DNA from: a virus
Virus genome (UHGV): UHGV-1844342
Strand: one strand, 5' to 3'
Length of the DNA: 11,823 nucleotides
A model generated the notes under the pieces. It worked only from the letters and a program-made list of their open reading frames with translations. It made no database searches and was not told where the DNA came from. The first letter of the stretch is position 1; each line of letters starts with the position of its first letter. This document shows positions 1 through 11,823 of this stretch, piece by piece. A program made the translations under genes and the position numbers.

Positions 1-16
1 GCCAGTGATGGGTTAA

Positions 17-490
17 GTGATAACAGGTGTCTGGAAATATAGGGGCAAATCCAGTTGGGTTTGGACTGTACCAAAAGATCACTCAAAAACTGGTGTTGAA
101 ATCGTCAGACCAGTACCTGAAATTCTACGACAGTGGGTAACGGATGTTCACGAAGAGACAAAACATACTGGTTATGTGCTGGGAAGTCTGCGAATTAGAG
201 AAAGCGTAAGCAAGATTGGGGGGAAAATCGGTAAACGTTTGGGCCATGAAAAACAATGGTCACTACACGACCTTAGAAGAACGCTATCTACTCATCTAAG
301 TGATCTCGGTGTTGAATTTTATGTAGTAGAACAACTGTTAGGCCATGCGCTACCTGGCGTGGCAGGTGTTTACAACCGGAGTAAGTTTATGGCTAAAAAA
401 CTGGATGCTCTGGAACTCTGGACTACATATCTCAATAGCATCGCAGGTGCTGATTCAAAAGTGACAATCCTCAAACAAAAGGTTGGTTAA
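17..490 (+). pseudogene. int: Tyrosine integrase (P4/CP4-57 type), C-terminal catalytic fragment only; 5'-truncated or frameshifted
   Basis: Translation has SKTG (conserved Lys region), HDLRRT (His-x-x-Arg), LLGH and GVYNRS (catalytic Tyr) motifs of tyrosine recombinases. In-frame TAA at 14-16 and stops in all three forward frames within the first 45 nt, so the N-terminal domain and box I Arg cannot be read through from upstream. Confidence 0.65.
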
Positions 491-491
491 C

Positions 492-719
492 ATGAAAAAA
501 ATGGCAATTGTTGATAAAAAGGGTCTGGAGTACATTCCTAACATTGACCGAATGATCCGTGAGAAAGAATGTCGGGAGCTAACCACTCTTGCGAACAGCA
601 CACGCTGGAAGCTGGAGAAGGAAGGAAAATTTCCTAAGCGGATCAAGATTGGTTCCACTGCTGTTGCATATCGTCTTTCAGAAGTGCAGGCATGGATTCG
701 AGGTGAGTGGGTAGTTTAA
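492..719 (+). CDS. alpA: AlpA/Vis-family prophage transcriptional regulator (winged HTH)
   Basis: 75-aa product; ...ELTTLANSTRWKLEKEGKFPKRIKIGSTAVAYRLSEVQAWI... fits the AlpA/Vis HTH pattern; sits directly after int as in Gram-negative PICIs; ATG 492 with AAGG 9 nt upstream (track start 483 is a TTG). Confidence 0.8.
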   Translation: MKKMAIVDKKGLEYIPNIDRMIREKECRELTTLANSTRWKLEKEGKFPKRIKIGSTAVAYRLSEVQAWIRGEWVV

Positions 720-744
720 ATTATCTCAGAATAAAATATTATGA

Positions 745-780
745 ATTACTGATTTGAGAATTTGTACTCAAATCAGTAAT
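745..780. terminator. Perfect 14-bp inverted repeat (ATTACTGATTTGAG / CTCAAATCAGTAAT) with 8-nt loop; candidate bidirectional intrinsic terminator between alpA and the convergent minus-strand cargo gene
   Basis: Arms 745-758 and 767-780 are exact reverse complements; AT-rich flanks on both sides; lies between convergent stop codons (719 and 789). Confidence 0.55.
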
Positions 781-788
781 AACATTCT

Positions 789-1325
789 TTATAAGAGATT
801 AAATCCAAATAAAGAGTAATCATATACCGGGGTGCATTGCATTCCACTGAATATGCTGATGTTTTTTTCTGTTTCTATCCTTTTTTCAATAAGTTGTTGT
901 ATATTTTTACAGTACAATTTGTGTGTGATGTTATTATCGTAAGCCTGATATAGCAACGTCAATGTTGACGCTAGGAAACATACAGATAAAATTAAAGTAA
1001 CATATGCGGTTTTTTTATTTTTTGTCCATGATCTATTTGTTTGTGAAATATAAAGAATTCTGATGTGGATAATGGTGAGAGACAATAGCAGGCCACTCAA
1101 TAAAATAAGTATTGGGTTTGCGTATTTTATTAATGGTTGAGAGCAAAAAACTATTATAGCTCCTGTGACTGCGTATGAGAAAAAGGAGTAATTAAACTTC
1201 TTACTCCTTCTCTCAAGTATTTTAATTTCATCTTGTGTGGGGGTTTTAGATGCCTCTAATATAAGTTTATTGAATGTTTCTGTTATCTTGTTTTTTGTGT
1301 TTGTGGCTATTTTTTTTAGATTCAT
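789..1325 (-). CDS. Hypothetical small membrane protein (about 3 predicted TM segments) in an AT-rich cargo island
   Basis: 178-aa ORF on the minus strand; GGAG about 12 nt upstream of ATG; hydrophobic stretches FFSYAVTGAIIVFCSQPLI, PILILLSGLLLSLTIIHIRILYI, AYVTLILSVCFLASTLTLLY; local GC far below the rest of the island. Confidence 0.55.
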   Translation of the reverse strand: MNLKKIATNTKNKITETFNKLILEASKTPTQDEIKILERRSKKFNYSFFSYAVTGAIIVFCSQPLIKYANPILILLSGLLLSLTIIHIRILYISQTNRSWTKNKKTAYVTLILSVCFLASTLTLLYQAYDNNITHKLYCKNIQQLIEKRIETEKNISIFSGMQCTPVYDYSLFGFNLL

Positions 1326-1639
1326 AGCATTCTAACTCCCTTAACTTATTTATTACTTTCTCTTTATGATAAGAGAGGGGAATGACTTGGTAAAGTGATT
1401 TGTCATTAATAATGATAATCCTTGCGATAAATATTTCTGCAAGTTATTTATCTGTTTGTTGCTATCTTGTTAAGCGTTGGGTGTGGTTTATGTTTGGAGC
1501 GACTTTATTTAATCGTGATTTTATGGATTTATATTTATATCCTGTAAGATAAGCGCATGTTAGTTCAGGAGTAGTGTCAGATAAAATTATTCGGAGTAGA
1601 ACTACCTTTTCTGTTTATTGCCAGTATTTACATAGCAAT

Positions 1640-1666
1640 GCGCCGTAGTTACTCACATCACGGCGC
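1640..1666 (-). terminator. Weak candidate hairpin (GCGCCGT ... ACGGCGC, 7-bp stem, 13-nt loop) just downstream of the minus-strand regulator gene
   Basis: Inverted repeat 1640-1646 / 1660-1666, 10 nt past the stop of the 1676-1978 gene; no clean U-tract. Confidence 0.25.
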
Positions 1667-1675
1667 TGATACTAA

Positions 1676-1978
1676 TTATTCAGATTCTTTGGCTTTACGC
1701 CGCTGGAGTTCTTCACGAGCGACGGCTACGAGTTGCCCGATTTCCTCCGCTGCCTTGATGCCGATTTGTTCGACCTTAGCTAAGGCATCCAGTGAAGACA
1801 CGAGGGGATTTTCTCCGCTTCCTTCTGCCTGGCGGCGGGCGATCTCACCGCGCATGGCGGTTACTATGAATCCGGCGTTGCTCTCGCCGTCCAGTTTTAC
1901 GGATTCCATGCCCTCCATAACATCGTGGGGAACCCTGATCGTTGTCATTTGCGATTTTGCATTTTTGTATACAGACAT
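1676..1978 (-). CDS. Putative ribbon-helix-helix (Arc/CopG-like) DNA-binding protein; candidate master repressor of the island, divergent from the early operon
   Basis: 100-aa ORF; N-terminal MTTIRVPHDVMEGMESV...NAGFIVTAMRGEIARRQ resembles a beta-strand/helix/helix RHH fold; divergently arranged relative to the operon starting at 2187 with an operator-repeat array in between. Confidence 0.45.
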   Translation of the reverse strand: MSVYKNAKSQMTTIRVPHDVMEGMESVKLDGESNAGFIVTAMRGEIARRQAEGSGENPLVSSLDALAKVEQIGIKAAEEIGQLVAVAREELQRRKAKESE

Positions 1979-1989
1979 AGTTAATCACC

Positions 1990-2110
1990 AATTTGTTATG
2001 TGTATATCACTATACACAAAAGTGATATATAAAAACACTTGCAATGTATATCACCACAATATAATGTATATCTCACATTATGGTCGCTATGTATCTCACA
2101 ATGATCGATT
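1990..2110. promoter_or_regulatory. Divergent promoter/operator region: four direct copies of TGTAT(A)TC(T)CAC(A) at 2001, 2045, 2065, 2090, one inverted copy (GTGATATA, 2022-2029), and a consensus -10 TATAAT (2060-2065) with TTGCAA (2039-2044) 15 bp upstream
   Basis: Repeats read directly from sequence; the -10 hexamer overlaps the repeats, consistent with a repressed early promoter. Confidence 0.6.
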
Positions 2111-2186
2111 CATAAAAACGACGAAACCCGGCAGTGCGCGAACACTAACCGGGCTTCTAACCAAACCGTTAAACGAGGTAACGATT

Positions 2187-2552
2187 ATGGCTGGAACACA
2201 GCATACCCAAACTCACCCTAAATTTATATACACCTTTCTGGCACTACACCACGACCGCATGGCAGATGGAGCAACTACGGTACATGTAGCCGCTGACACG
2301 CTGGTTGATGCCCGCAAGATGGTTAAGGAGATGGGCTATACTGCGGCTTTCTGGAAAGGGCGTGAAGAAAACACGCTGTTTATTCAGAAATGCGAAAACA
2401 ATTTCATCTGGCGTTTTATCGCCCTGAGTACGGCACAACCGCGCGTGATTCACATCGTGGCCACCAGCGAACAGGAAGCCCGCCAGCAATCCCCGGCTGG
2501 TTGCGTGAGGGTATTCGCCGCCCGTATTCGTCAGGAGGTATGCCGTGCTTAA
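2187..2552 (+). CDS. Hypothetical protein, first gene of the early operon
   Basis: ATG 2187 with GAGG 8 nt upstream; 121 aa; the track ORF 1638-2552 is the same frame, but its upstream part overlaps the operator region and the minus-strand regulator gene. Confidence 0.55.
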   Translation: MAGTQHTQTHPKFIYTFLALHHDRMADGATTVHVAADTLVDARKMVKEMGYTAAFWKGREENTLFIQKCENNFIWRFIALSTAQPRVIHIVATSEQEARQQSPAGCVRVFAARIRQEVCRA

Positions 2553-2730
2553 AACCTTCCGTGTATTTGCCCGAGCGGTTAACCCACGAGGCCACACAAT
2601 TGGTATCACTCAGAACGTGAAGGCTGTTAATGTTCAGACGGCTATTGCTGTGGTGAGAAGCGAATCATCAGAATATGGCTTATCACAAGTCATTATTTCA
2701 GCAGTGTATGAATTAAAAGAGGTGCATTAA
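2545..2730 (+). CDS. Hypothetical small protein (61 aa)
   Basis: GTG start 2545 with strong AGGAGG 6 nt upstream; overlaps the previous stop and the next start (TAATG at 2727-2732), i.e. translational coupling. Confidence 0.5.
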   Translation: MLKTFRVFARAVNPRGHTIGITQNVKAVNVQTAIAVVRSESSEYGLSQVIISAVYELKEVH

Positions 2731-2921
2731 TGCAGGAAATTACATTACACGAAGCCGCTGAACGTGCGCACCAGACAGAAATTATTTGCCGCCTTCTTGA
2801 GGTATACCCGAACAAAATTACAGATGCTGATATATCCGCACTGGCGAGCCTACTGGCGCGTCTTTCGGGAAGTGTCGCTAGTTTTTTGATTGAGGAAGAA
2901 AGTAAGCTGGTGGGGGATTAA
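2730..2921 (+). CDS. Hypothetical small protein (63 aa)
   Basis: ATG with AAGAGG upstream; stop followed immediately by the next start (TAAATG). Confidence 0.5.
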   Translation: MQEITLHEAAERAHQTEIICRLLEVYPNKITDADISALASLLARLSGSVASFLIEEESKLVGD

Positions 2922-3143
2922 ATGAATACAGAACGGGAAGTCTTTTTTAAATTGTTAGCATGTGCAGAAAGTTCATTAACTTTAAATAATTCAGCAAAAG
3001 CAATATTAAATATGTGGCTTGATTGCATAAATGACAATGAAGATGCAAATATTGCTTATGGCCTGTTGTCACTTATTGATGAAGCAGCAGAAAAACTCAA
3101 TGACGCAATAAATAGTGCCCTGTTATCAAATAAGTCGAGTTAA
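2922..3143 (+). CDS. Hypothetical small protein (73 aa), AT-rich moron-like gene inside the early operon
   Basis: ORF with GGGGGA upstream; base composition clearly lower in GC than flanking genes. Confidence 0.45.
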   Translation: MNTEREVFFKLLACAESSLTLNNSAKAILNMWLDCINDNEDANIAYGLLSLIDEAAEKLNDAINSALLSNKSS

Positions 3144-3160
3144 GTCGAGGAATAAATAAT

Positions 3161-3460
3161 ATGGAAATGAAAAATTCTGGCTTTATTGCCAGCGGCCCCG
3201 CTCGGCCTGAATTTATGAACGGCGATATTTACCGCGATAAATACGGCGGCACGGTAACGATTAAAGGCGTGGCAGAACGGCGCATCACTTACCGCCGTGA
3301 GGGGTATAGCTATGACTGCGTGATGCCTGTTTATCAGTTCCGGCGTGATTTTTCCCTGGTATATGCCGCACCTCGCAGTAAGCCCACCAGCAGGGAAAAA
3401 GCGCGGGGAAACATCCAGAAAATGAAAAGCATGATTAACGCATTCAGGGGCAAAAAATGA
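3161..3460 (+). CDS. Hypothetical protein (99 aa), translationally coupled to the replication gene
   Basis: GAGGAA upstream of ATG; stop overlaps the start of the downstream gene (ATGA at 3457-3460). Confidence 0.55.
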   Translation: MEMKNSGFIASGPARPEFMNGDIYRDKYGGTVTIKGVAERRITYRREGYSYDCVMPVYQFRRDFSLVYAAPRSKPTSREKARGNIQKMKSMINAFRGKK

Positions 3461-5208
3461 AACTGGCACCGAACTTAAAAAAACAGCCACGCGACAGACT
3501 GACAGAGGTAATCATCTTTGCAGGTAGTGATGCGTGGAGCCATGCGAAAGAGTGGCAGGAATGGGCGGGTAAACATATTGCCGCCGACGATGTGCCGCCT
3601 GTCGTGCTGGCTGATGAGCAACTGAAAAACATCATCGATTACCGGATCATTGATGAAGATCGTCAGTGTGTGCGTGTTTACCGCGCAGGACATATCACAG
3701 AGCACAGCATGACGCAGATTGTTACGTTACTGGCTGTGGCTGGAGTGAAGACCGTACACGAATACGCGGGGATTACTGACACCAGCCCCGTGGATTTATC
3801 CGACCAGTTGCCGCGACTCAAAGAGGAATGCGAGCGTGGGGAAAGTCTGGTGCTTAATCTTCCGACGAAGCAAAAGGCGCAACTTTCACAGATGGCAGAC
3901 AGTGAACGTGCACAACTACTTGCCGATCGCTTTGATGGTGTGTGTGTTCATGCAGAAAGTGAAATCGTCCACGTATGGCGCGGCGGGGTATGGTGTCCGG
4001 TCAGCACAATGGAGCTGAGCCGCGAAATGGTGGCGATCTATTCAGAGCACAGGGCCACGTTCAGCAAACGTGTAATCAATAACGCCGTGGAAGCGTTAAA
4101 AGTTATTGCCGACCCCATGGGGGAGCCGTCCGGTGATTTACTACCGTTCACTAATGGTGTGCTTAACCTGAAAACGGGGGATTTTTCTCCGCACTTACCG
4201 GAGCACTGGAGCACCACGCACAATGGCATTGAGTACACGCCACCAGTAGCAGGGGAAAACATCCGCGATAATGCGCCAAATTTCCATAAATGGCTTGAAC
4301 ATGCTGCAGGAAAAGACCCGCGCAAGATGATGCGTATATGTGCCGCGTTATACATGATTATGGCGAACCGCTACGACTGGCAGATGTTCATTGAGGCCAC
4401 CGGAGACGGGGGAAGCGGTAAGAGTACATTTACCCATATTGCCACCCTGCTTGCTGGCAAACAGAACACCGTAAGCGCAGAGATGACATCACTCGATGAT
4501 GCAGGAGGGCGCGCGCAGGTTGTCGGGAGTCGTCTTATCGTCCTTGCCGATCAGCTGAAATATACGGGGGAAGGCACGGGCATCAAGAAAATCACGGGAG
4601 GCGATCCCGTTGAAATTAACCCGAAATATGAGAAGCGATTCACGACGATAATAAGGGCGGTGGTACTGGCAACCAATAACGACCCGATGATCTTTACCGA
4701 ACGGGCCGGAGGTGTGTCACGCCGTCGGGTGATTTTCCGGTTCGACAACATTGTAAGGGAGGACGAAAAAGACAAGGAATTACCGGAAAAGATAGCGGCA
4801 GAAATCCCCGTAATTATCCGCCGCTTGCTGGCTAATTTTGCTGACCCTGAAAAGGCACGGGCTTTATTACTGGAACAGCGTGACGGTGATGAAGCTCTGG
4901 CAATAAAGCAGCAAACGGATCCGGTTGTTGAGCTTTGCGCGGCGCTGGAGTTTCTGGAGGAAGCTCGTGGGCTAATGATGGGCGGTGGTGGTGACACCGT
5001 GAAGTACACGACCAGAAACAGCCTTTACCGTGTCTATATGGCCTTCATGGCATATACAGGAAAGGGGAAATGTTTGAGCGTGAATGAGTTCGGAAAGGCT
5101 ATGAGGTCAGCGGCGAAAGTTTACGGATATGAATATATTACGCGAAAAGTTAAGGGAGTCACGCAGACCAACGCAACGACTACTGATGATTGCGATGCGT
5201 TTTTATAA
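3457..5208 (+). CDS. Replication protein: SF3 helicase with primase-associated N-terminal region (P4 alpha C-terminal / D5-like family; PICI pri-rep analogue)
   Basis: 583 aa; Walker A EATGDGGSGKST (about nt 4395-4430), Walker B-like RLIVLADQ (about 4531-4554), motif C-like VLATNND; iteron origin immediately downstream. Confidence 0.85.
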   Translation: MKLAPNLKKQPRDRLTEVIIFAGSDAWSHAKEWQEWAGKHIAADDVPPVVLADEQLKNIIDYRIIDEDRQCVRVYRAGHITEHSMTQIVTLLAVAGVKTVHEYAGITDTSPVDLSDQLPRLKEECERGESLVLNLPTKQKAQLSQMADSERAQLLADRFDGVCVHAESEIVHVWRGGVWCPVSTMELSREMVAIYSEHRATFSKRVINNAVEALKVIADPMGEPSGDLLPFTNGVLNLKTGDFSPHLPEHWSTTHNGIEYTPPVAGENIRDNAPNFHKWLEHAAGKDPRKMMRICAALYMIMANRYDWQMFIEATGDGGSGKSTFTHIATLLAGKQNTVSAEMTSLDDAGGRAQVVGSRLIVLADQLKYTGEGTGIKKITGGDPVEINPKYEKRFTTIIRAVVLATNNDPMIFTERAGGVSRRRVIFRFDNIVREDEKDKELPEKIAAEIPVIIRRLLANFADPEKARALLLEQRDGDEALAIKQQTDPVVELCAALEFLEEARGLMMGGGGDTVKYTTRNSLYRVYMAFMAYTGKGKCLSVNEFGKAMRSAAKVYGYEYITRKVKGVTQTNATTTDDCDAFL

Positions 5209-5220
5209 AAAATGGCAATG

Positions 5221-5455
5221 GTTATCTACCTTGTCTACCTGACTGAAATAAAATACTTTTATTTCAATGTATTAATGCAGGTAGATAACTATTTTTCACT
5301 GTCTACCTGTTATCTACCTTATCTACCCATTTTTGTAGACAGGTAAGGAGACGGGTAGAGATGAGGTAGACAGCTATTTGGGGCTGTCTACCTCCCTGAA
5401 ACCCGCGCCATTACTGGCCTGATAACTAATCAGGTAGACAAGGTAGACAAGGTGG
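5221..5455. repeat. Iteron-type replication origin: about 12 copies of GGTAGAC(A)/GTCTACC (with GGTAGATA variants) in both orientations flanking an AT-rich spacer (5241-5278)
   Basis: Copies at about 5223, 5233, 5280, 5301, 5312, 5321, 5335, 5353, 5365, 5385, 5433, 5442; tandem pair GGTAGACAAGGTAGACAAGG at 5433-5451; directly 3' of the helicase gene as in PICI/P4 ori. Confidence 0.8.
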
Positions 5456-5497
5456 TGGTGCACAAAAAACTTTTTAAACGAGGGGGTAAAAATAAAA

Positions 5498-5740
5498 ATG
5501 CACACATCAGGAAAACTGAACAAACATATAAAGCCACATTACCGCGCCCTTGATATGGCTGAACACTGGCTAAGGGTGGCGATTAAGGCAATAGACCGCA
5601 ACGCCGGGGAAGGATACGCGAAAGCACATCCCGAACTGATAAGCGCATTCATGACAACGGCGGCTGCAAACTTTGCCACGCTGACCGAACGGGAGATTGC
5701 CGAAGCGGAGGAAGTGACAACCATCAATATTAAGTCCTGA
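5498..5740 (+). CDS. Hypothetical protein (80 aa)
   Basis: ATG with GAGGGGG upstream; no overlapping conflict. Confidence 0.5.
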   Translation: MHTSGKLNKHIKPHYRALDMAEHWLRVAIKAIDRNAGEGYAKAHPELISAFMTTAAANFATLTEREIAEAEEVTTINIKS

Positions 5741-5751
5741 GAGCAGGCAGC

Positions 5752-6201
5752 ATGACGGCGCAAATAGCAGCTTACGGGCGGCTGGTGGACGACCCACAGG
5801 TAAAACATACCAGCAAGGGAACACCCATGACACTGGCACGGATGGCGGTATCTTTGCCATGCAGCCAGGCAGATGACGGAACGGCGACGATGTGGTTATC
5901 TGTGCTGGCGTTTGGCAGACAAGCCGACGCGCTGGCAAAGCATCACAAAGGCGAACTCCTGAGCGTGGCGGGTAATATGCAGGTGAGCCAGTGGAGCGGA
6001 CAGAACGGGGAAACGCGGCAGGGCTGGCAGGTTATCGCAGACAGCGTAATCAGTGCCAGAACGGTGCGACCGGGCGGCAAAAAAGGTCAACAGGGGCAGG
6101 CTACTGATGCACTGAACAGAGCAAAACAACAGGCAGATCAGCAAGGAAGCCATCCACCAGTGGGAGATAATGAGCAATGGGGAGATGATATTCCGTTTTA
6201 A
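5752..6201 (+). CDS. ssb: Single-stranded DNA-binding protein
   Basis: 149 aa; OB-fold-like N-terminal region, Gly/Gln-rich linker, and canonical acidic C-terminal tail ...GDDIPF. Confidence 0.8.
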   Translation: MTAQIAAYGRLVDDPQVKHTSKGTPMTLARMAVSLPCSQADDGTATMWLSVLAFGRQADALAKHHKGELLSVAGNMQVSQWSGQNGETRQGWQVIADSVISARTVRPGGKKGQQGQATDALNRAKQQADQQGSHPPVGDNEQWGDDIPF

Positions 6202-6219
6202 ATATTGCCAATAAAAAAG

Positions 6220-6243
6220 GCCGGAAAAAATATATTTTCCGGC
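6220..6243. terminator. Hairpin GCCGGAAAA / TTTTCCGGC (9-bp stem, 6-nt loop) between the replication and morphogenesis modules
   Basis: Exact inverted repeat 6220-6228 / 6235-6243; an A-run precedes it on + (so a T-run follows it on the minus strand); function as a module boundary is inferred. Confidence 0.35.
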
Positions 6244-6411
6244 ATGCTACATAAATCCCGACCAAAGGGAGTGAAGATATTAACACTAATTATCCGCGCT
6301 GAAGTTGTCATCCCAAAACTTTATACAACATTGCACTCGGTTGCATGTGTTAGCATGACAAATATCGGTGATAGCATATATCCACAATTATTTTTAATGA
6401 ATGTAAAGAGG

Positions 6412-7458
6412 ATGAGTATGGTTGATTTATATTCGCCTGCCCAGCTTGTGCAGGTGGCTAATGCAGAAGAGGTGCAAAAAAAATTAAATGCATTGTTTAC
6501 CAGTTTGTTTTTCACTCGCTCGGTAATGTTTGAATCAAGAGACATTATTCTTGATACAATCGACGATCCAAATATCCCAATTGCAGCGTTTTGTTCTCCT
6601 ATGGTGGGTAGTAAAGTTTCACGTGACGAAGGGTACGAATCAAAGACAATTCGTCCAGGCTATATGAAGCCGAAAAGCAGCATTGATCCAAATAAGTTAG
6701 CTGTGCGCCCTGCTGGTGTATCACCTGAGCAATACAATGCTTTTGGAGCGCGTAATATTAAAGTTAAACAGGCGATTGTAAATCAGGCTAAAGCTATTCG
6801 TGCACGTATTGAATGGCTTGCCGTTCAGGCAATCACAACGGGGAAAAATATCATTGAGGGCGATGGCATTGAACGCTATGAACTGGACTGGAATATAAAA
6901 CCACAAAATATTATCACGCAGTCCGGCGGTGCTGAGTGGTCAGGTAAGGATAAAGAAACTTTTGATCCAAATGATGATATTGAGAGCTACGCAGAATTTA
7001 GTGAGGGCGTCACTAATATCATCATTATGGGCGGTAATGTATGGAAGAAATACCGTTCATTCAGAGCGATAAAAGAGGCTCTGGATACCCGTCGTGGTTC
7101 TAATTCCGAACTGGAAACGGCCCTTAAAGACCTTGGTGATTCGGTGAGTTTTAAAGGGTATATGGGCGATGTTGCGATTGTTGTATACAGCGGGCGTTAT
7201 ACCGACGAGGACGGAACTGAAAAACATTTCCTTGATCCTGATTTGATGGTGCTTGGCAATACGGCTCTTCAGGGGATTGTCGCCTATGGCGGTATTCAGG
7301 ATCCGGAGCTAATCCGAATGGGGCTGACTAAAGCCGAACTTGCACCGAAAAACTATATTGTGCCTGGTGATCCGGCTATTGAATATGTGCAGACACATTC
7401 AGCACCACAGCCAATACCGGCCCGCATCAATCGTTTTGTTACCGTTCGCATTGGCTAA
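6412..7458 (+). CDS. Major capsid protein, divergent homolog of lambda gpE (HK97 fold)
   Basis: ATG 6412 preceded by AAGAGG; C-terminal about 200 aa align with the lambda E fragment present in this same window (shared blocks ITQSGG.EWS..DK.T.DP.DDIE.YA, DTRRGS.SELETA.KDLG, GDVAIVVYSG, MVLGNT), roughly 55-60 percent identity there by eye; N-terminal third far more divergent. Confidence 0.85.
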   Translation: MSMVDLYSPAQLVQVANAEEVQKKLNALFTSLFFTRSVMFESRDIILDTIDDPNIPIAAFCSPMVGSKVSRDEGYESKTIRPGYMKPKSSIDPNKLAVRPAGVSPEQYNAFGARNIKVKQAIVNQAKAIRARIEWLAVQAITTGKNIIEGDGIERYELDWNIKPQNIITQSGGAEWSGKDKETFDPNDDIESYAEFSEGVTNIIIMGGNVWKKYRSFRAIKEALDTRRGSNSELETALKDLGDSVSFKGYMGDVAIVVYSGRYTDEDGTEKHFLDPDLMVLGNTALQGIVAYGGIQDPELIRMGLTKAELAPKNYIVPGDPAIEYVQTHSAPQPIPARINRFVTVRIG

Positions 7459-7467
7459 GGGGGAGCA

Positions 7468-7809
7468 ATGGCTACTCATTACACTGAACTCATGGCTGGC
7501 ACTGAAGCACTGGTGACTACGCTGGGGATATTTTCAGCTAATAAAGGGGTAATTCCTGCATTTACGCCACTGATGCAGGAAGATGCAACAGGTGCACTGG
7601 TGGTATGGGATGGTTCGAGCGTAGGTAAAGCGGTTTATGTTTCCGCTGTACAAATCGACACCGCGAAAAAAACACAGGCTCAGGTCTATAAGACAGGTGT
7701 CTTAAATGTTGATGCTCTGAACTGGCCTGAGTCTGTAAAAGAACTGTCAGTAAAGATTGCAGCGTTTGTTGGCTCAGGTATTTCTGTTCAGCCGCTGGCT
7801 CGTGTGTAA
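7468..7809 (+). CDS. Head decoration protein, lambda gpD-like
   Basis: 113 aa; AAGGGGGAG RBS; blocks TPLMQEDATGALVVWDG, VYKTGVLNVDALNWPES and FVGSGISVQ resemble lambda gpD (TPLM..VAWDG, FYKSGTFRYEDVLWPEA, FAGTAISIV) as recalled. Confidence 0.7.
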   Translation: MATHYTELMAGTEALVTTLGIFSANKGVIPAFTPLMQEDATGALVVWDGSSVGKAVYVSAVQIDTAKKTQAQVYKTGVLNVDALNWPESVKELSVKIAAFVGSGISVQPLARV

Positions 7810-7820
7810 AGGGGGATACA

Positions 7821-8204
7821 ATGCAGAATCATTACAATGACCTTAAGCCAATTGCCGAAATGATGTATCCGGATCCAGCAGTAGAGGAATTAAAGGCTAT
7901 TGCTGACAAAATGCGTTTAAGCGAGCGTCTTGTTGATATGAATCAGGTGATGGAACTTACAACCCTGAGTCGTCGTACACTGCTAAACCTTGAAGCACGT
8001 GGAGAGTTCCCCGAACGCGTGCAGGTTACGGAAGGGCGTAAGGCCTGGTATTTAAGCGAAGTGATCGACTGGATAAACAATATTCCGCGCGCTTCTGAAT
8101 ATTGCCGCGTACCTGTCCCAAAAAAGCCAGATGCGGCGCTATGCCTCAAGATTGAGCGTGTACGCCGCAATGCGCGGGATGGTCGCTATAAGCTGATTGG
8201 TTGA
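7821..8204 (+). CDS. Second AlpA-family HTH protein with about 40-aa N-terminal extension; candidate late/packaging regulator
   Basis: 127 aa; AAGGGGGA RBS; core ELTTLSRRTLLNLEARGEFPERVQVTEGRKAWYLSEVIDWI matches the AlpA/Vis winged-HTH pattern. Confidence 0.7.
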   Translation: MQNHYNDLKPIAEMMYPDPAVEELKAIADKMRLSERLVDMNQVMELTTLSRRTLLNLEARGEFPERVQVTEGRKAWYLSEVIDWINNIPRASEYCRVPVPKKPDAALCLKIERVRRNARDGRYKLIG

Positions 8205-8219
8205 TGAAATTAGGGCCCG

Positions 8220-8300
8220 TTCTGGCTGGCGGGTCCTTTCCGGCGATCCAGAACGTTACGGGGCGGCGACCTCGCGGGTTTTCGCTATTTATGAGCATTT
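8220..8300 (+). other. cos: Lambda-type cos site: cosQ-like segment, cosN 12-nt cohesive-end sequence GGGCGGCGACCT (8261-8272), and proximal cosB segment
   Basis: 8223-8294 reads TGGCTGGCGGGTCCTTTCCGG.GATCC....GTTACG GGGCGGCGACCT CGCGGGTTTTCGCTATTTATGA, matching the joined right-end/left-end sequence of phage lambda as recalled; a Nu1-like gene follows as in lambda. Confidence 0.85.
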
Positions 8301-8405
8301 TTAGGGGACTGGTGGTGGTTTTGTTGTTCGCTATATCTGTATGAATAATAAGAGAAAAACACAATCAACACACCAACCTGAAACAGTAATTAAGTTGTGG
8401 TATCA

Positions 8406-8948
8406 ATGAAATTGCACCTGATGAACAAAAAAAACATGGCAAAAAGTTGCCGTGTAAGCGCCACTGCGTTCGATAAGTGGGGAGTGATTCCCGTCGAGCG
8501 TAAGGGCCGCGAGGCGTTTTATGATGTCGCCAGTGTAATAGATAATCGGGTTAACAATGCAATCAGCCAGATTACAAACGAAACGGGCGAGATTGATGAT
8601 GATGAACTCCTACGAGTCAGGATCAGATTGCTGACAGCACAGGCAGAGGCGCAGGAGCTTAAAAACGAGCGCGAACGCGGCGACGTTATTGATACAGCGT
8701 TTTGTATATACGTGCTTTCAAAACTGGCGAGTCAGATTTCTTCAATCATGGACAGCCTGCCGCTTGCCATGACAAGGAAGTTTCCCGACATGAAGCCGTC
8801 TATGCTGGATGGACTGAAAAAAGAAGTTATCAGAGCCTGTAACGCATGCGCAAAACTTGACGAAAACATACCGCTGATGCTGTCCGATTATCTGATGGAA
8901 ACTGCCGGAAACGTACCGGATAAGTTGCAGCTGAATAAAGATAAGTAA
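8406..8948 (+). CDS. Terminase small subunit, lambda Nu1-like (winged HTH N-terminus plus gpA-interaction C-terminus)
   Basis: C-terminal two-thirds aligns with recalled lambda Nu1 (LTAQAEAQELKNER...DTAFCIYVLSKLASQISSIMDSLPLAMTRKFPDM...KLDENIPLMLSDYL vs LTRAQADAQELKNARD...ETAFCTFVLSRIAGEIASILDGLPLSVQRRFPEL...ALDELIPGLLSEYI); N-terminus more divergent; start 8406 by analogy with lambda (8421 is an alternative; track start 8397 is GTG). Confidence 0.8.
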   Translation: MKLHLMNKKNMAKSCRVSATAFDKWGVIPVERKGREAFYDVASVIDNRVNNAISQITNETGEIDDDELLRVRIRLLTAQAEAQELKNERERGDVIDTAFCIYVLSKLASQISSIMDSLPLAMTRKFPDMKPSMLDGLKKEVIRACNACAKLDENIPLMLSDYLMETAGNVPDKLQLNKDK

Positions 8949-8959
8949 CGTAGTACGCT

Positions 8960-9241
8960 ATGACTGAATCCGAAATACTGCGATTAATCCGCCGTGCTTG
9001 TGGAATCAGCAAGCAGCATGACGAACAGGCCACGCAGCCGGACAGCGTGATCGCCGAAAATTACGCGCGTGTTGTTGCTGATGTGATGCGCCGTGATGGT
9101 ATTGAGCTTAACGGCGTGGATATGCGCGACATACGGATCAGATTCCTTGAGTTGCTGGCATACCGTCGCCGTTCTCAACAACGAAGGGAGAGCGCGAAAA
9201 ACACTTATCAGTGGAAGAAGCCGGAACGGTTGCGGCGGTAG
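8960..9241 (+). CDS. Hypothetical basic protein (93 aa) in the position occupied by the large terminase gene in lambda
   Basis: ORF directly downstream of the Nu1-like gene (12-nt gap); Arg-rich C-terminus; no obvious SD; no similarity to lambda gpA N-terminus that I can see. Confidence 0.45.
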   Translation: MTESEILRLIRRACGISKQHDEQATQPDSVIAENYARVVADVMRRDGIELNGVDMRDIRIRFLELLAYRRRSQQRRESAKNTYQWKKPERLRR

Positions 9242-9983
9242 ATTCCTGATATTCAGGAAAACCACGAATCCGGGGGTTTTACTGGCGCGGTGTACACGGT
9301 GGAACGTATAGCGTTACCTGACTTATTGCATTGTAAAAAGTTGAAAGGCACGGCCTGTAAGATGGGATGTTGTGAGTAGTTTAAAGCTACCCGCAAATTC
9401 TTTCGTTGTGCTGGCACAGGCGGTTAAACCGTCGGTAACTGGATAATCCCCACTGGGGGAAAAGCTGGCTACATCCCTCACATCTGAGGACTGATAACGC
9501 AAAATTGCGTTGGCTGGCAGAGTGCAAATTTGCACGATGGCCTAACCCATTGATTCTTTCGAAAACCCCCATTGGGGGAGAACGGGGGAATAAACCTGAC
9601 TCATTGATTTTTCCACAATCCTTAATTTGAGGAAGCTGGATAGTTGCACTACCCAAAAAGTGCAGTACCCACATAGCTGCTTAATAGCGTTTATTTTTTC
9701 CGCACACCTCAAATCTGAGAAGGCCGGAATGATGACATGGCAGGATTATGATTCCTTGATTTCAAGGAGTCCTCCAGTGTGAAAATGAAATTATCTGGGC
9801 TGGTGGGTGAGTTGCTGATCTGCAACTCGGCTATGAAACTTAATAATCGAACAGCATGTAAATTCATTTCTGTGTATTGCAGCATGTATTGCAACATAGT
9901 CATTCTGGTAGAGATTATGCTCTATTTTTCCTCTTATATCATTCACATACTTACGTCATTGACTCATGTAGCCGAAGCATGAG

Positions 9984-10760
9984 GTGAATCCGCAGATGAC
10001 CCTGCGTCGCCTGCCGGATGAAGATCCGCAGAATCTGGCGGACCCGGCTTACCGCCGCCGTCGCATCATTATGCAGAACATGCGTGACGAAGAGCTGGCC
10101 ATTGCCCAGGTCGAAGAGATGCAGGCAGTTTCTGCCGTGCTTAAGGGCAAATACACCATGACCGGTGAAGCTTTCGATCCGGTTGAGGTGGATATGGGCC
10201 GCAGTGCGGCCAACAACATCACGCAGTCCGGCGGCACGGAGTGGAGCAAGCGTGACAAGTCCACGTATGACCCGACCGACGATATCGAAGCCTACGCGCT
10301 GAACGCCAGCGGAGTGGTGAATATCATCGTGTTTGATCCGAAAGGCTGGGCGCTGTTCCGTTCCTTCAAAGCCGTCAAGGAGAAGCTGGATACTCGTCGC
10401 GGCTCTCATTCCGAGCTGGAGACAGCGGTGAAAGACCTGGGCAAAGCGGTGTCCTACAAGGGGATGTATGGCGATGTGGCCATCGTCGTGTATTCCGGAC
10501 AGTACGTGGAAAACGGCGTCAAAAAGAACTTCCTGCCGGACAACACGATGGTGCTGGGGAACACTCAGGCACGCGGTCTGCGCACCTATGGCTGCATTCA
10601 GGATGCGGACGCACAGCGCGAAGGCATTAACGCCTCTGCCCGTTACCCGAAAAACTGGGTGACCACCGGCGATCCGGCGCGTGAGTTCACCATGATTCAG
10701 TCAGCACCGCTGATGCTGCTGGCTGATCCTGATGAGTTCGTGTCTGTACAACTGGCGTAA
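9984..10760 (+). pseudogene. E: Major capsid protein gpE, 5'-truncated fragment (C-terminal about 258 codons), near-identical to lambda E
   Basis: Translation NPQMTLRRLPDEDPQNLADPAYRRRRIIMQNMRDEELAIAQ...EFVSVQLA matches lambda gpE from about residue 85 to the end as recalled; in-frame TAG at 9969-9971 and non-lambda AT-rich sequence upstream; the track start is a GTG that is internal in lambda. Confidence 0.85.
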
Positions 10761-10801
10761 TCATGGCCCTTCGGGGCCATTTTCTCTCTGTGGAGGAGTT
10801 C

Positions 10802-11200
10802 ATGACGAAAGATGAACTGATTGCCCGTCTTCAGGAGCTGGGTGAGCAACTGAACCGCGATGTCAGTTTGACGGGAACGAAAGAAGAACTGGCGCTTCGT
10901 GTGGCAGAGCTGGAAGAAGAGCTTGATGACACGGATGAAACTGCCGGTCAGGACACCCCTCTCAGCCGGGAAAATGTGCTGACCGGGCATGAAAATGAGG
11001 TGGTATCAGCGCAGCCGGATACCGTGATTCAGGATACGGCTGAACTGGTCACGGTTGTGGCACTGGTGACGCTGCATACTGATGCACTTCACGCCACGCG
11101 GGATGAACCTGTGGCATTTGTGCTGCCGGGAACGGCGTTCCGTGTCTCTGCCGGTGTGGCAGCTGAAATGACAGAGCGCGGCCTGGCCAGAATGCAATAA
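10802..11200 (+). CDS. FI: DNA-packaging protein FI, lambda-like
   Basis: MTKDELIARL...LTGTKEELALRVAELEEELDDTDETAGQDTPLSRENVLTGHENEV...AEMTERGLARMQ matches lambda gpFI as recalled; GGAGGAG RBS before ATG 10802 (the track start 10763 is an upstream extension). Confidence 0.9.
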   Translation: MTKDELIARLQELGEQLNRDVSLTGTKEELALRVAELEEELDDTDETAGQDTPLSRENVLTGHENEVVSAQPDTVIQDTAELVTVVALVTLHTDALHATRDEPVAFVLPGTAFRVSAGVAAEMTERGLARMQ

Positions 11201-11211
11201 CGGGAGGCGCT

Positions 11212-11823
11212 GTGGCTGATTTCGATAACCTGTTCGATGCTGCCATTGCCCGCGCCGATGAAACGATACGCGGGTACATGGGAACGTCAGCCACCATGAC
11301 ATCCGGTGAGCAGTCCGGTGCTGTGATACGTGGTGTTTTTGATGACCCTGAAAATATCAGCTATGCCGGACAGGGCGTGCGCGTTGAAGGCTCCAGCCCG
11401 TCCCTGTTTGTCCGGACTGATGATGTGCGGCAGCTGCGGCGCGGCGACACGCTGACTTCCATTGCCCGGCAATTCGGCACGACGGTCACGAGCATTGTCG
11501 CAATCAATGATCTAAAAAATGAATCTGATCGCAATGAGCAGGACGGCATCAGGTATATGCTTATGGGCTTCTTTCAAGGGCCTCGCAATTTGTACCAACA
11601 CAATCACATTGGCTCCGGTGTAAGCAATTCTATTTCCGTAATCATTGAAGCATCTTTCTTCCTCCATCTACTTGATGGGCACAGCATTACTCAAAACGGA
11701 CGCTGGATTCCGGCCAAAGCAGATTATCACGAGATTTATCAAAAGATGCCCAAGCATATTGATCGTTGGAAGCTTGTACGCCTACTAAAGAAGCGTGATC
11801 GTAGGTTGAAGAAAGATCAATGA
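11212..11823 (+). CDS. FII: FII-like head-tail joining protein: first about 82 codons lambda FII-like, then an unrelated lower-GC C-terminal extension (chimeric or disrupted gene)
   Basis: GTG start with GGGAGG RBS; MADFDNLFDAAIARADETIRGYMGTSAT...VRQLRRGDTLT matches lambda gpFII as recalled, then diverges at about nt 11458 (lambda continues IGEENFWV...); the frame nevertheless stays open for about 120 more codons to the TGA at the window end. Confidence 0.6.
   Translation: MADFDNLFDAAIARADETIRGYMGTSATMTSGEQSGAVIRGVFDDPENISYAGQGVRVEGSSPSLFVRTDDVRQLRRGDTLTSIARQFGTTVTSIVAINDLKNESDRNEQDGIRYMLMGFFQGPRNLYQHNHIGSGVSNSISVIIEASFFLHLLDGHSITQNGRWIPAKADYHEIYQKMPKHIDRWKLVRLLKKRDRRLKKDQ

Follow-up and report, generated by a model that had tools for sequence, protein, structure and literature searches.

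The 11capE satellites, whose embedding inside the capsid gene of a helper prophage was published in 2023 (Tommasini, Mageeney & Williams, NAR Genom Bioinform, PMC10111431), belong to the Gram-negative PICIs (GN-PICIs), 21 of whose 29 reference members have a capsid gene (Tommasini et al., 2023, PMC10111431). Excision and replication of 11capE have been shown, and no virions were detectable in the 11capE/50icd system (PMC10111431). The prototype GN-PICI, EcCICFT073, has been shown to undergo induction, replication and high-frequency transfer by helper phage, and carries a capsid gene (c1499, crystal structure PDB 3BQW) followed by a decoration gene, c1500 (Fillol-Salom et al., 2018, PMC6092414). 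Deleting c1499 or c1500 altered neither transfer of this island by its resident helper nor its interference with lambda, the DNA packaged when lambda was combined with EcCICFT073 was all phage-sized, and with phage 80 a derivative bearing cat in place of c1499 reached transfer titres of up to 1e6 per ml (PMC6092414). As these deletions and the cat replacement leave transfer intact, the pair is dispensable in laboratory conditions. A search of the later literature for a function of the PICI capsid and decoration genes found none.

The window analysed here is the whole stretch of 11,823 nucleotides of UHGV virus genome UHGV-1844342, of which 11.4 kb align to E. coli GN06489 with 99.97% identity. 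The following features were recognized in it:

17–490, + strand: satellite tyrosine integrase, C-terminal part, the window starting inside the gene (Pfam Phage_integrase, 1.6e-11)
492–719, + strand: alpA, excisionase/regulator (Pfam Phage_AlpA, 3.1e-15)
3457–5208, + strand: primase/helicase (Pfam D5_N, DUF5906, Pox_D5; PHROG 864, 3e-158)
5217–5453, no strand assigned: putative replication origin just 3' of pri, with multiple iterons (GGTAGACA / TGTCTACC) lying in either orientation
5752–6201, + strand: single-strand DNA-binding protein, SSB (Pfam SSB, 1.2e-14; PHROG 44)
6418–7458, + strand: satellite major capsid protein homologue of the gpE family, 346 aa (Pfam, PHROG and PDB matches)
7468–7809, + strand: satellite head decoration protein homologue of the gpD/SHP family, 113 aa (Pfam, PHROG and PDB matches)
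7821–8204, + strand: late-zone HTH regulator, the second AlpA-like protein (Pfam Phage_AlpA, 1.4e-08; PHROG 2790, 1.8e-48)
8230–8301, + strand: lambda-type cos core, cosQ/cosN region (65 of 72 bases identical to lambda cos)
8406–8948, + strand: Nu1-family small terminase subunit, TerS (Pfam Phage_Nu1, 1.4e-24; PHROG 57, 8e-52)
8960–9241, + strand: conserved 93-aa protein, last in the late zone (PHROG 1561)
9970–9979, + strand: attR core AGCCGAAGCA, a 10-bp identity block and the sole copy in the window
9972–10760, + strand: lambda-type E of the helper prophage, C-terminal ~260 codons, split by the satellite (Pfam Phage_cap_E, profile 94–328)
10802–11456, + strand: FI and an N-terminal fragment of FII, both of the helper prophage (Pfam Packaging_FI, 2.6e-56, and Phage_attach; annotation of an identical locus)

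On sequence grounds the island is identified as a helper-embedded Gram-negative PICI of 10.9 kb, of the published 11capE type. Its integrase gene (17–490) stands at one end with alpA adjacent and co-oriented, its own primase gene is followed at once by the putative origin, and the 10,888 bp between the att cores are mostly unidirectional and free of lysis and tail genes, all of which agrees with a GN-PICI. The iteron cluster at 5217–5453 was located by repeat search, and its designation as a putative origin follows from a position matching that of the GN-PICI ori (PMC6092414). Insertion at codon ~80 of E in the co-orientation, a 10-bp att block and an integrase of the 11capE clade place the island among the helper-embedded PICIs (HE-PICIs) designated E:Phage_cap_E:80. 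The P4/PICI-type satellite proposed in a sequence-only reading of this DNA is thus borne out by the int-alpA-primase-SSB series. The reported absence of a portal, protease or scaffold gene also holds, since no island ORF matches these or a large terminase in Pfam, PHROG or the PGAP annotation of an identical island. The same reading took the layout to be undescribed, which is refuted: it is the standard GN-PICI 'late zone' (PMC6092414, PMC10111431). An Rfam scan of the whole window, in which C4/isrK-type immunity RNAs known from some PICIs were sought, returned no family at gathering score, and sigma-70 promoters and terminators scanned for between 5200 and 10000 were no more numerous than in shuffled sequence, which yields no expression signal for the pair.

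The likeness to HE-PICI Eco567.11capE of E. coli NRG857c is close in most parts. The integrase is 99.3% identical (residues 13–157 in the window, and at full length over 411 residues in the identical locus L005), AlpA 100% (WP_000737991.1), the capsid protein 98.6%, the decoration protein 100% (WP_000190772.1) and the late-zone HTH regulator (7821–8204) 96%; the insertion at E codon ~80, the orientation and the ~11-kb size are also shared. The primase, however, is just 48% identical to that of 11capE and nearer that of EcCICFT073 (80%), indicating that the element is a mosaic. At its right end the island has cos, the Nu1-like TerS and the 93-aa ORF, whereas the 11capE founder has HEPN and DUF262 genes, and the att core is AGCCGAAGCA compared with AACCCAAGCA in the founder (PMC10111431). 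The differences from 11capE are mosaic variants of the kind catalogued, as 220 genotypes, in that survey, which lists 491 HE-PICIs (PMC10111431).

EcCICFT073 shares with the window the order of int, alpA, YlcI/YnfO (on the opposite strand), Icd-like, DUF4222, primase and SSB, followed by capsid, decoration, cos, a packaging-specificity gene and the 93-aa ORF. Its c1499 and c1500, likewise in the E-then-D order (PMC6092414), are 56% and 54% identical to the E and D of the window, its last ORF is 73% identical to the 93-aa protein (8960–9241), and there too an exact lambda cosN precedes the packaging gene. It differs in its integrase (45% identity), in its location beside phoQ and outside any prophage, in a second cosN, and in having a PerC-like gene and a further ORF ahead of the capsid gene. 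RppA (144 aa) occupies the position of the full Nu1-like TerS of the window.

Other satellites resemble the island less. SaPIbov5 Ccm is, like the capsid protein described here, a satellite-borne homologue of a helper-type HK97-fold capsid protein (PMC6092414, PMC6893505). Ccm alters capsid size and blocks the helper, whereas the E homologue of EcCICFT073 does neither. SaPIbov5 is not known to have a decoration partner. The capsid-forming PICIs (cf-PICIs) have genes for portal, protease, TerL and head-tail connectors (PMC10085698), whereas Pfam and PHROG searches of all ORFs and the PGAP annotation revealed no portal, protease, TerL or connector in the window island. In P4, the helper capsid protein is combined with an external scaffold, Sid, and a decoration protein, Psu; the window island has members of the gpE and gpD families instead, and Sid, Psu and delta/epsilon were unmatched in Pfam and PHROG. 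Both cf-PICIs and P4 have int, alpA and primase in common with the island and are likewise helper-dependent for virion parts.

The capsid ORF (6412/6418–7458) matched Pfam Phage_cap_E (PF03864) over profile positions 3–327 of 329 (E = 1.7e-41; 142.8 bits, above the curated cut-off of 22.9) and PHROG 29 'major head protein' (1.2e-89), and a PDB sequence search matched it to the solved lambda gpE structure 7VI9 (1e-77) and to 3BQW (3e-121). Position 6418 is a likelier start than the 6412 assumed in the sequence-only reading, because the 6412 ATG directly adjoins the AAGAGG Shine-Dalgarno and PGAP also picks 6418. Identity to lambda gpE is 42.5% over the full length and 29%, 47% and 50% by thirds, with a peak of 57–65% in alignment columns 161–280. 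The same reading had called the protein a gpE-like capsid, which these matches sustain, and had described a divergent N-terminal third with the rest better conserved, which is roughly right. Among 50,697 records, lambda is the phage with the closest E, none exceeding 42.4% identity.

The decoration ORF matched Pfam HDPD (PF02924; 4.4e-15, 56.3 bits compared with a curated cut-off of 29.1), PHROG 49 'head decoration' (1.2e-25) and the solved structures 1TD0 (6e-16) and 1C5E, gpD (1e-11), in agreement with the gpD-like decoration protein proposed earlier. Its best solved match, 1TD0/1TD3, we take to be phage 21 SHP. Identity to gpD is 38% over the core domain, with the first ~30 residues unaligned; these, together with the N-terminal third of E, are the least conserved stretches of the pair, a pattern taken to favour a cognate pair. 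The solved close homologues 3BQW, 7VI9 and 1TD0 fix the folds of the two proteins. The pair is accordingly established as the gpE-family capsid and gpD/SHP-family decoration genes of a GN-PICI late zone. These are the families to which the lambda head proteins E and D and the SHP of phage 21 belong, and the E-then-D order noted earlier is indeed reversed relative to lambda, where D (5747–6079) precedes E (6135–7160). The lambda neighbours W, B, C/Nu3, FI and FII are lacking from the satellite element. Integrase-mediated capture has been proposed for another island (PMC10111431). As a source of the E-then-D order here, such capture at E:80 was rejected, the satellite E being intact, collinear and 42% identical to the helper E.

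Both ORFs are full length and intact in all relatives examined, and some 260 E. coli genomes carry the module. Purifying selection on the pair is strong: dN/dS, at dS ~0.1, is 0.03–0.09 for the capsid gene and 0.11–0.13 for the decoration gene. The E/D lineage in satellites appears to be old, given that phage E is distant and that PICI subfamilies are 56% and 54% identical to each other in E and D. The 11capE family, its capsid gene and its insertion in the helper E have already been published, and the decoration gene is known from EcCICFT073. New in this study are the purifying selection, the finding of no phage E above the 42% of lambda, the occurrence of the module at other integration sites, and the combination of cosN with a Nu1-like TerS.

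For packaging, the island carries a cos site and a Nu1-like TerS, as expected of a GN-PICI. The exact 12-nt lambda cosN GGGCGGCGACCT lies at 8261–8272, just downstream of the E/D pair and upstream of the Nu1 homologue, and the likeness to lambda cos ends where lambda cosB begins. Compared with lambda Nu1 (38% identity), the TerS has diverged in its N-terminal DNA-binding part and is better conserved in its C-terminal half. When this protein was searched against PDB sequences, neither RppC nor the Nu1 N-terminal domain was matched. Its identification as an Rpp protein was rejected, as BLASTP against RppA gave no match and RppC was unmatched, leaving it a Nu1 homologue.

The island lies at codon ~80 of the E gene of a lambda-like prophage. 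The decamer AGCCGAAGCA, given as the core of E_Phage_cap_E_80 HE-PICIs in the supplement of PMC10111431, is present at both island ends in loci L001 and L005. When the two E fragments of L001 were joined, a 341-aa protein with 99.1% identity to lambda gpE was obtained, so that precise excision would restore the helper E. In complete genomes, TerL, W, portal, C, D and the first part of E are found to the left of the island, and the rest of E, FI, FII and tail genes to the right. The sequence-only reading, which overlooked the split E, FI and FII of the helper at 9972–11456, held that its proposal would fall if the region were part of a complete lambdoid head module in the same element. Such a module does surround the island; it is, however, a separate element, belonging to the helper prophage and delimited from the island by the 10-bp att cores.

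Taken together, the reading of the pair as the shell and cement genes in the late zone of an 11capE-type PICI has high confidence (about 0.85), its identity being shown by sequence and its part in building heads being an inference. The satellite brings an integrase, AlpA, a primase, a putative ori and SSB, together with a lambda-type cosQ/cosN, its own cosB region and the Nu1-like TerS. The latter has a diverged DNA-binding head but retains the C-terminal half, the part of lambda Nu1 to which the large terminase docks, and the helper must provide portal, protease/scaffold, TerL, head completion proteins and tail. E and D are most likely a co-evolved shell-plus-cement pair that can build, or contribute to, DNA-filled heads of full size on the helper portal and scaffold. 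The satellite would thereby gain a capsid supply independent of the helper E and D, for instance while the helper E is still interrupted, and the pair would be redundant wherever helper E and D are available. The puzzle is that E and D are kept under strong purifying selection although the EcCICFT073 deletions show no laboratory phenotype, and its answer would tell how much of the virion a 'minimal' satellite provides for itself. It is conceivable, though unlikely, that in its natural setting, where the satellite lies within a lambda-like prophage or shares the cell with one and E of that prophage is silent until the satellite excises, the pair builds satellite-specific shells of another size or excluding helper subunits; if true, this would explain the purifying selection that the laboratory results leave unexplained.

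Other explanations of the pair were weighed against the same evidence. That it replaces the helper E interrupted by the satellite is suggested by the very position of an E homologue within an interrupted E, which is how Tommasini et al. found 11capE (PMC10111431), and by the co-orientation of the satellite genes with helper late transcription. This is nevertheless quite unlikely, as the E/D/HTH/TerS module (98–99% protein identity) is also found in a PICI that has another integrase and lies between rcnR and thiM, outside any prophage (L006), and in an HE-PICI inserted in a portal gene with helper D and E intact (L007); EcCICFT073, beside phoQ, carries the pair too, and precise excision restores the helper E. 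The sequence-only reading saw in the pair an undescribed strategy in which E and D, with helper portal and scaffold, form a smaller capsid for one ~10-kb genome, an idea already in the literature for the PICI pair. An island of 10,888 bp without portal, protease or scaffold and with the pair under purifying selection fits this proposal, and a related Pasteurella PICI with a capsid homologue makes small heads (PMC6092414, PMC6893505). It is very doubtful, however, given that the layout was already described, that the phage-sized DNA and the lack of a deletion phenotype in EcCICFT073 argue against it (PMC6092414), that EcCICFT073 uses normal-size capsids according to reviews (PMC6893505), and that four copies of 10.9 kb make 43.6 kb, near the ~45-kb phage-length concatemers of the model island (PMC10111431).

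Since satellites often interfere at capsid assembly, and the capsid homologue Ccm of SaPIbov5 redirects it (cited in PMC6092414), the proteins might also be poison subunits spoiling helper capsids. This is improbable: c1499 and c1500 deletion mutants of EcCICFT073 still block lambda (PMC6092414), interference by that island is explained by RppA acting on TerS (Fillol-Salom et al., 2019, PMC6739421), and a conserved cognate decoration protein would be needless. Equally improbable is that the genes are unused cargo, remnants of captured helper late genes, as might be supposed from the proposed origin of PICI late zones by such capture (PMC10111431) and the absence of a phenotype in EcCICFT073 (PMC6092414). 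The ORFs are intact in every relative examined, with dN/dS of 0.03–0.13, and the order of the pair is kept across PICI subfamilies only ~55% identical; as the satellite E is far from any sequenced phage E, any capture must lie far back in time, and the genes have been kept ever since. Finally, complete genomes have TerL, portal, C protease, D, E fragments, FI and FII on either side of the region, and the second E fragment, FI and FII fall within the window, so that the pair might be taken for part of the head module of an entire lambdoid prophage, with no satellite at all. This can hardly be right: a separate D and a split E (99.1% identical to lambda gpE when rejoined) belong to the prophage, the integrase, AlpA, primase, ori and cos of the island lie between att cores, and the island also occurs outside prophages, an att-bounded structure that refutes a prophage-only reading.

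At the right end of the window, the part that is not E. coli matches two Firmicutes MAG contigs and was treated as a chimeric end; the junction pattern found there was absent from the genome contigs searched. Of 5426 complete E. coli genomes, 173 contain the attL junction. The helper portal gene is interrupted by an internal stop in both GN06489 and FDAARGOS_1296, and this particular composite may therefore be defective.

The element is inserted in a lambda-like prophage, inside its E gene, as seen in two complete E. coli genomes with an identical island, FDAARGOS_1296 and GN06489 (the latter locus 99.97% identical to window positions 53-11456). The locus order is TerL-W-portal-C-D-E' / int ... 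island ... / 'E-FI-FII-Z-U-V-G-T-H..., and both island junctions carry the decamer AGCCGAAGCA, a core present as a single copy in the window. In silico removal of the 10,888-bp island rejoins an E gene of 341 aa that is 99.1% identical to lambda gpE; the satellite E differs at the equivalent position (ATGAAGCCGAAAAGCAGC). Exactly this arrangement has been published as the HE-PICI 'Eco567.11capE' of E. coli NRG857c (Tommasini, Mageeney & Williams, 2023, PMC10111431), with 201 elements mapped to site E:Phage_cap_E:80 and the core agccgaagca listed in the supplement. The same authors noted that 11capE disrupts a phage capsid gene yet has its own, and a capsid gene occurs in 21 of the 29 reference GN-PICIs (PMC10111431). 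The element is almost certainly a helper-embedded GN-PICI of the 11capE type, and its satellite nature, proposed in the sequence-only reading, was borne out. The helper E remnant, FI and FII (9970-11456), which that reading did not mention, correspond to the published HE-PICI configuration. The genes of the window are as follows.

17-490, plus strand, C-terminus of a tyrosine integrase
492-719, plus strand, AlpA
Between AlpA and the primase, two ORFs on the minus strand and an Icd-like gene, followed by small ORFs and a DUF4222 gene
3457-5208, plus strand, D5-type primase/helicase
An 80-aa ORF, then SSB at 5752-6201, plus strand
6418-7458, plus strand, E-like capsid gene (Pfam, PHROG and PDB matches)
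7468-7809, plus strand, D-like decoration gene (Pfam, PHROG and PDB matches)
7821-8204, plus strand, second AlpA-like HTH gene
8406-8948, plus strand, Nu1-family small terminase (TerS)
8960-9241, plus strand, 93-aa ORF
9972-10760, downstream of the island, C-terminal ~260 codons of a helper-type lambda E gene
3' of this E fragment and up to 11456, FI, then the start of FII

Compared with the proteins of the founding 11capE locus of NRG857c, the integrase fragment is 99.3% identical, AlpA 100%, the capsid protein 98.6%, the decoration protein 100% (WP_000190772.1) and the late HTH protein 96%. The window primase, in contrast, is 80% identical to that of the prototype GN-PICI EcCICFT073 and only 48% to the founder's, and at the right end the window has cos, TerS and the 93-aa ORF whereas the founder, described as lacking terS, has HEPN and DUF262 genes. 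By these comparisons the window element is a mosaic variant of the 11capE type. EcCICFT073 also carries an E-then-D pair in the same gene order (c1499/c1500; E 56% and D 54% identical to the window pair), and c1499 has been solved by crystallography (PDB 3BQW). The layout was therefore not novel as claimed, having been published for 11capE (PMC10111431) with the same pair in EcCICFT073. The capsid/decoration pair is already known in this satellite family; what is added here is the purifying selection, the age of the lineage, the module at other sites, the cognate-pair reading, the cos/TerS packaging unit and the iteron cluster.

The observation of gpE-like and gpD-like genes was confirmed, and the interpretation placed on it partly supported. 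The capsid gene matches Pfam Phage_cap_E end to end (1.7e-41), PHROG 29 (1.2e-89), the solved lambda gpE structure 7VI9 (1e-77) and 3BQW (3e-121), while the decoration gene matches Pfam HDPD (4.4e-15), PHROG 49 (1.2e-25) and the solved decoration proteins 1TD0 and 1C5E. The capsid gene had been placed at 6412-7458; the gene stands, but a start at 6418 is likelier because an AAGAGG Shine-Dalgarno sequence lies directly against the 6412 ATG, and it is also the start chosen by PGAP. The E-then-D order, reversed relative to lambda, holds. No island ORF resembles a portal, protease or scaffold, as had been noticed, nor a large terminase. A lambda-like helper has to supply the portal, protease/scaffold, TerL, head completion and tail; the satellite itself provides for integration, replication and cos/TerS specificity. 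Satellite E is 42.5% identical to lambda E over its full length (29%, 47% and 50% by thirds) and satellite D 38% identical to lambda D over the core, with the first ~30 residues unaligned. The least conserved parts are the N-terminal third of E and the N-terminus of D. In lambda capsids the corresponding regions meet at the three-fold sites, and their divergence here would be in keeping with co-evolution of a cognate pair.

An exact lambda cosN (GGGCGGCGACCT) is located at 8261-8272, within a 72-bp stretch (8230-8301) that is 90% identical to lambda cosQ/cosN and lies directly upstream of the Nu1-like gene; the similarity stops at the start of cosB, where the sequence is unrelated. The cosN of EcCICFT073 has the same position upstream of rppA, and the window TerS fills the slot held there by RppA. 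This TerS is a full-length Nu1 family member (38% identical to lambda Nu1) whose C-terminal half is better conserved than its diverged N-terminal DNA-binding part. The satellite TerS likely recognises its own cosB and recruits the helper large terminase, which cuts the lambda-type cosN. Just downstream of the primase, a dense cluster of iterons (GGTAGACA/TGTCTACC) in both orientations occupies 5217-5453, a position at which PICI origins have been reported (PMC6092414), and is probably the satellite replication origin.

Among close relatives (dS 0.08-0.16), E has a dN/dS of 0.03-0.09 and D one of 0.11-0.13, values that show strong purifying selection on the pair; the genes are not decaying cargo, which counts against the rival reading of inert cargo. 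Another rival, plain prophage genes, is refuted by the att-bounded structure of the island. The pair is an old satellite lineage: the best E match among 50,697 phage records is lambda (42.4% identity), whereas between the window and EcCICFT073 subfamilies both proteins share ~55% identity. The late module (E/D/HTH/TerS/93-aa) also occurs in a PICI of NZ_CP148427.1, with E/D 97-99% identical, between chromosomal rcnR and thiM and outside any prophage, and in NZ_CP028192.1 as an HE-PICI in the helper portal gene, with helper D and E intact. The pair is not tied to helper E disruption, and these two cases count against its being a replacement in cis for the interrupted helper E. In both the module is joined to unrelated integrases (43% and 54% identical), indicating that the module moves between PICI backbones.

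A small-capsid role, as in the sequence-only reading, had already been proposed in the literature: by analogy with SaPIbov5 Ccm, c1499/c1500 were tested for capsid-size redirection and helper interference (Fillol-Salom et al., 2018, PMC6092414). This mechanism is contradicted in EcCICFT073, where DNA packaged with lambda was all phage-sized, deletion of c1499 or c1500 neither relieved lambda interference nor reduced transfer by a resident helper, and transfer was efficient with c1499 replaced by cat (PMC6092414). The use of normal-size capsids was repeated in a 2019 review (PMC6893505). Poison subunits are a further, unlikely rival; interference and packaging specificity of EcCICFT073 have been attributed to the action of RppA on helper TerS (PMC6739421). 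Virions of 11capE were not detectable (PMC10111431), and literature searches found no later work assigning a function to the PICI capsid/decoration pair. A conserved decoration protein would be useful only on the expanded, DNA-filled shell of its cognate capsid protein; therefore the pair would most likely form, or add to, real heads on helper portal and scaffold, a tentative reading with a probability of about 0.4. Such a pair would lessen dependence on the helper E/D supply and be redundant where helper E/D are present.

Of 5426 complete E. coli genomes, 173 have the attL junction. The 3.1-kb late module reaches >=80% coverage in 262 genomes. The attR arm is variable, as its junction is covered to >=80% in only 46 genomes, compared with the 173 of attL. 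The ~730 bp that separate the last satellite gene from attR (9242-9969) hold no substantial ORF, and an Rfam search of this stretch found nothing. An IS66 element interrupts the satellite primase of FDAARGOS_1296 (9581-12169 of that locus), and an internal stop is present in the helper portal gene both there (632-2233) and in GN06489 (1344-2945 of its locus); these helper/satellite composites may be defective. Window positions 1-52 and 11457-11823 depart from the GN06489 locus. In the last ~365 bp, FII is broken at about codon 82 and runs on into a LysM/Ymh-like ORF; this segment has no match in the 5426 complete E. coli genomes but shares ~91% identity with MAG contigs of Oscillospiraceae and Blautia. 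Both window ends resemble a chimeric assembly or an artificial join. A 178-aa predicted membrane protein without a family match is encoded on the minus strand at 789-1325, in a low-GC patch (31-36%) between alpA and the YlcI/YnfO gene, and may be accessory cargo of a variable zone.
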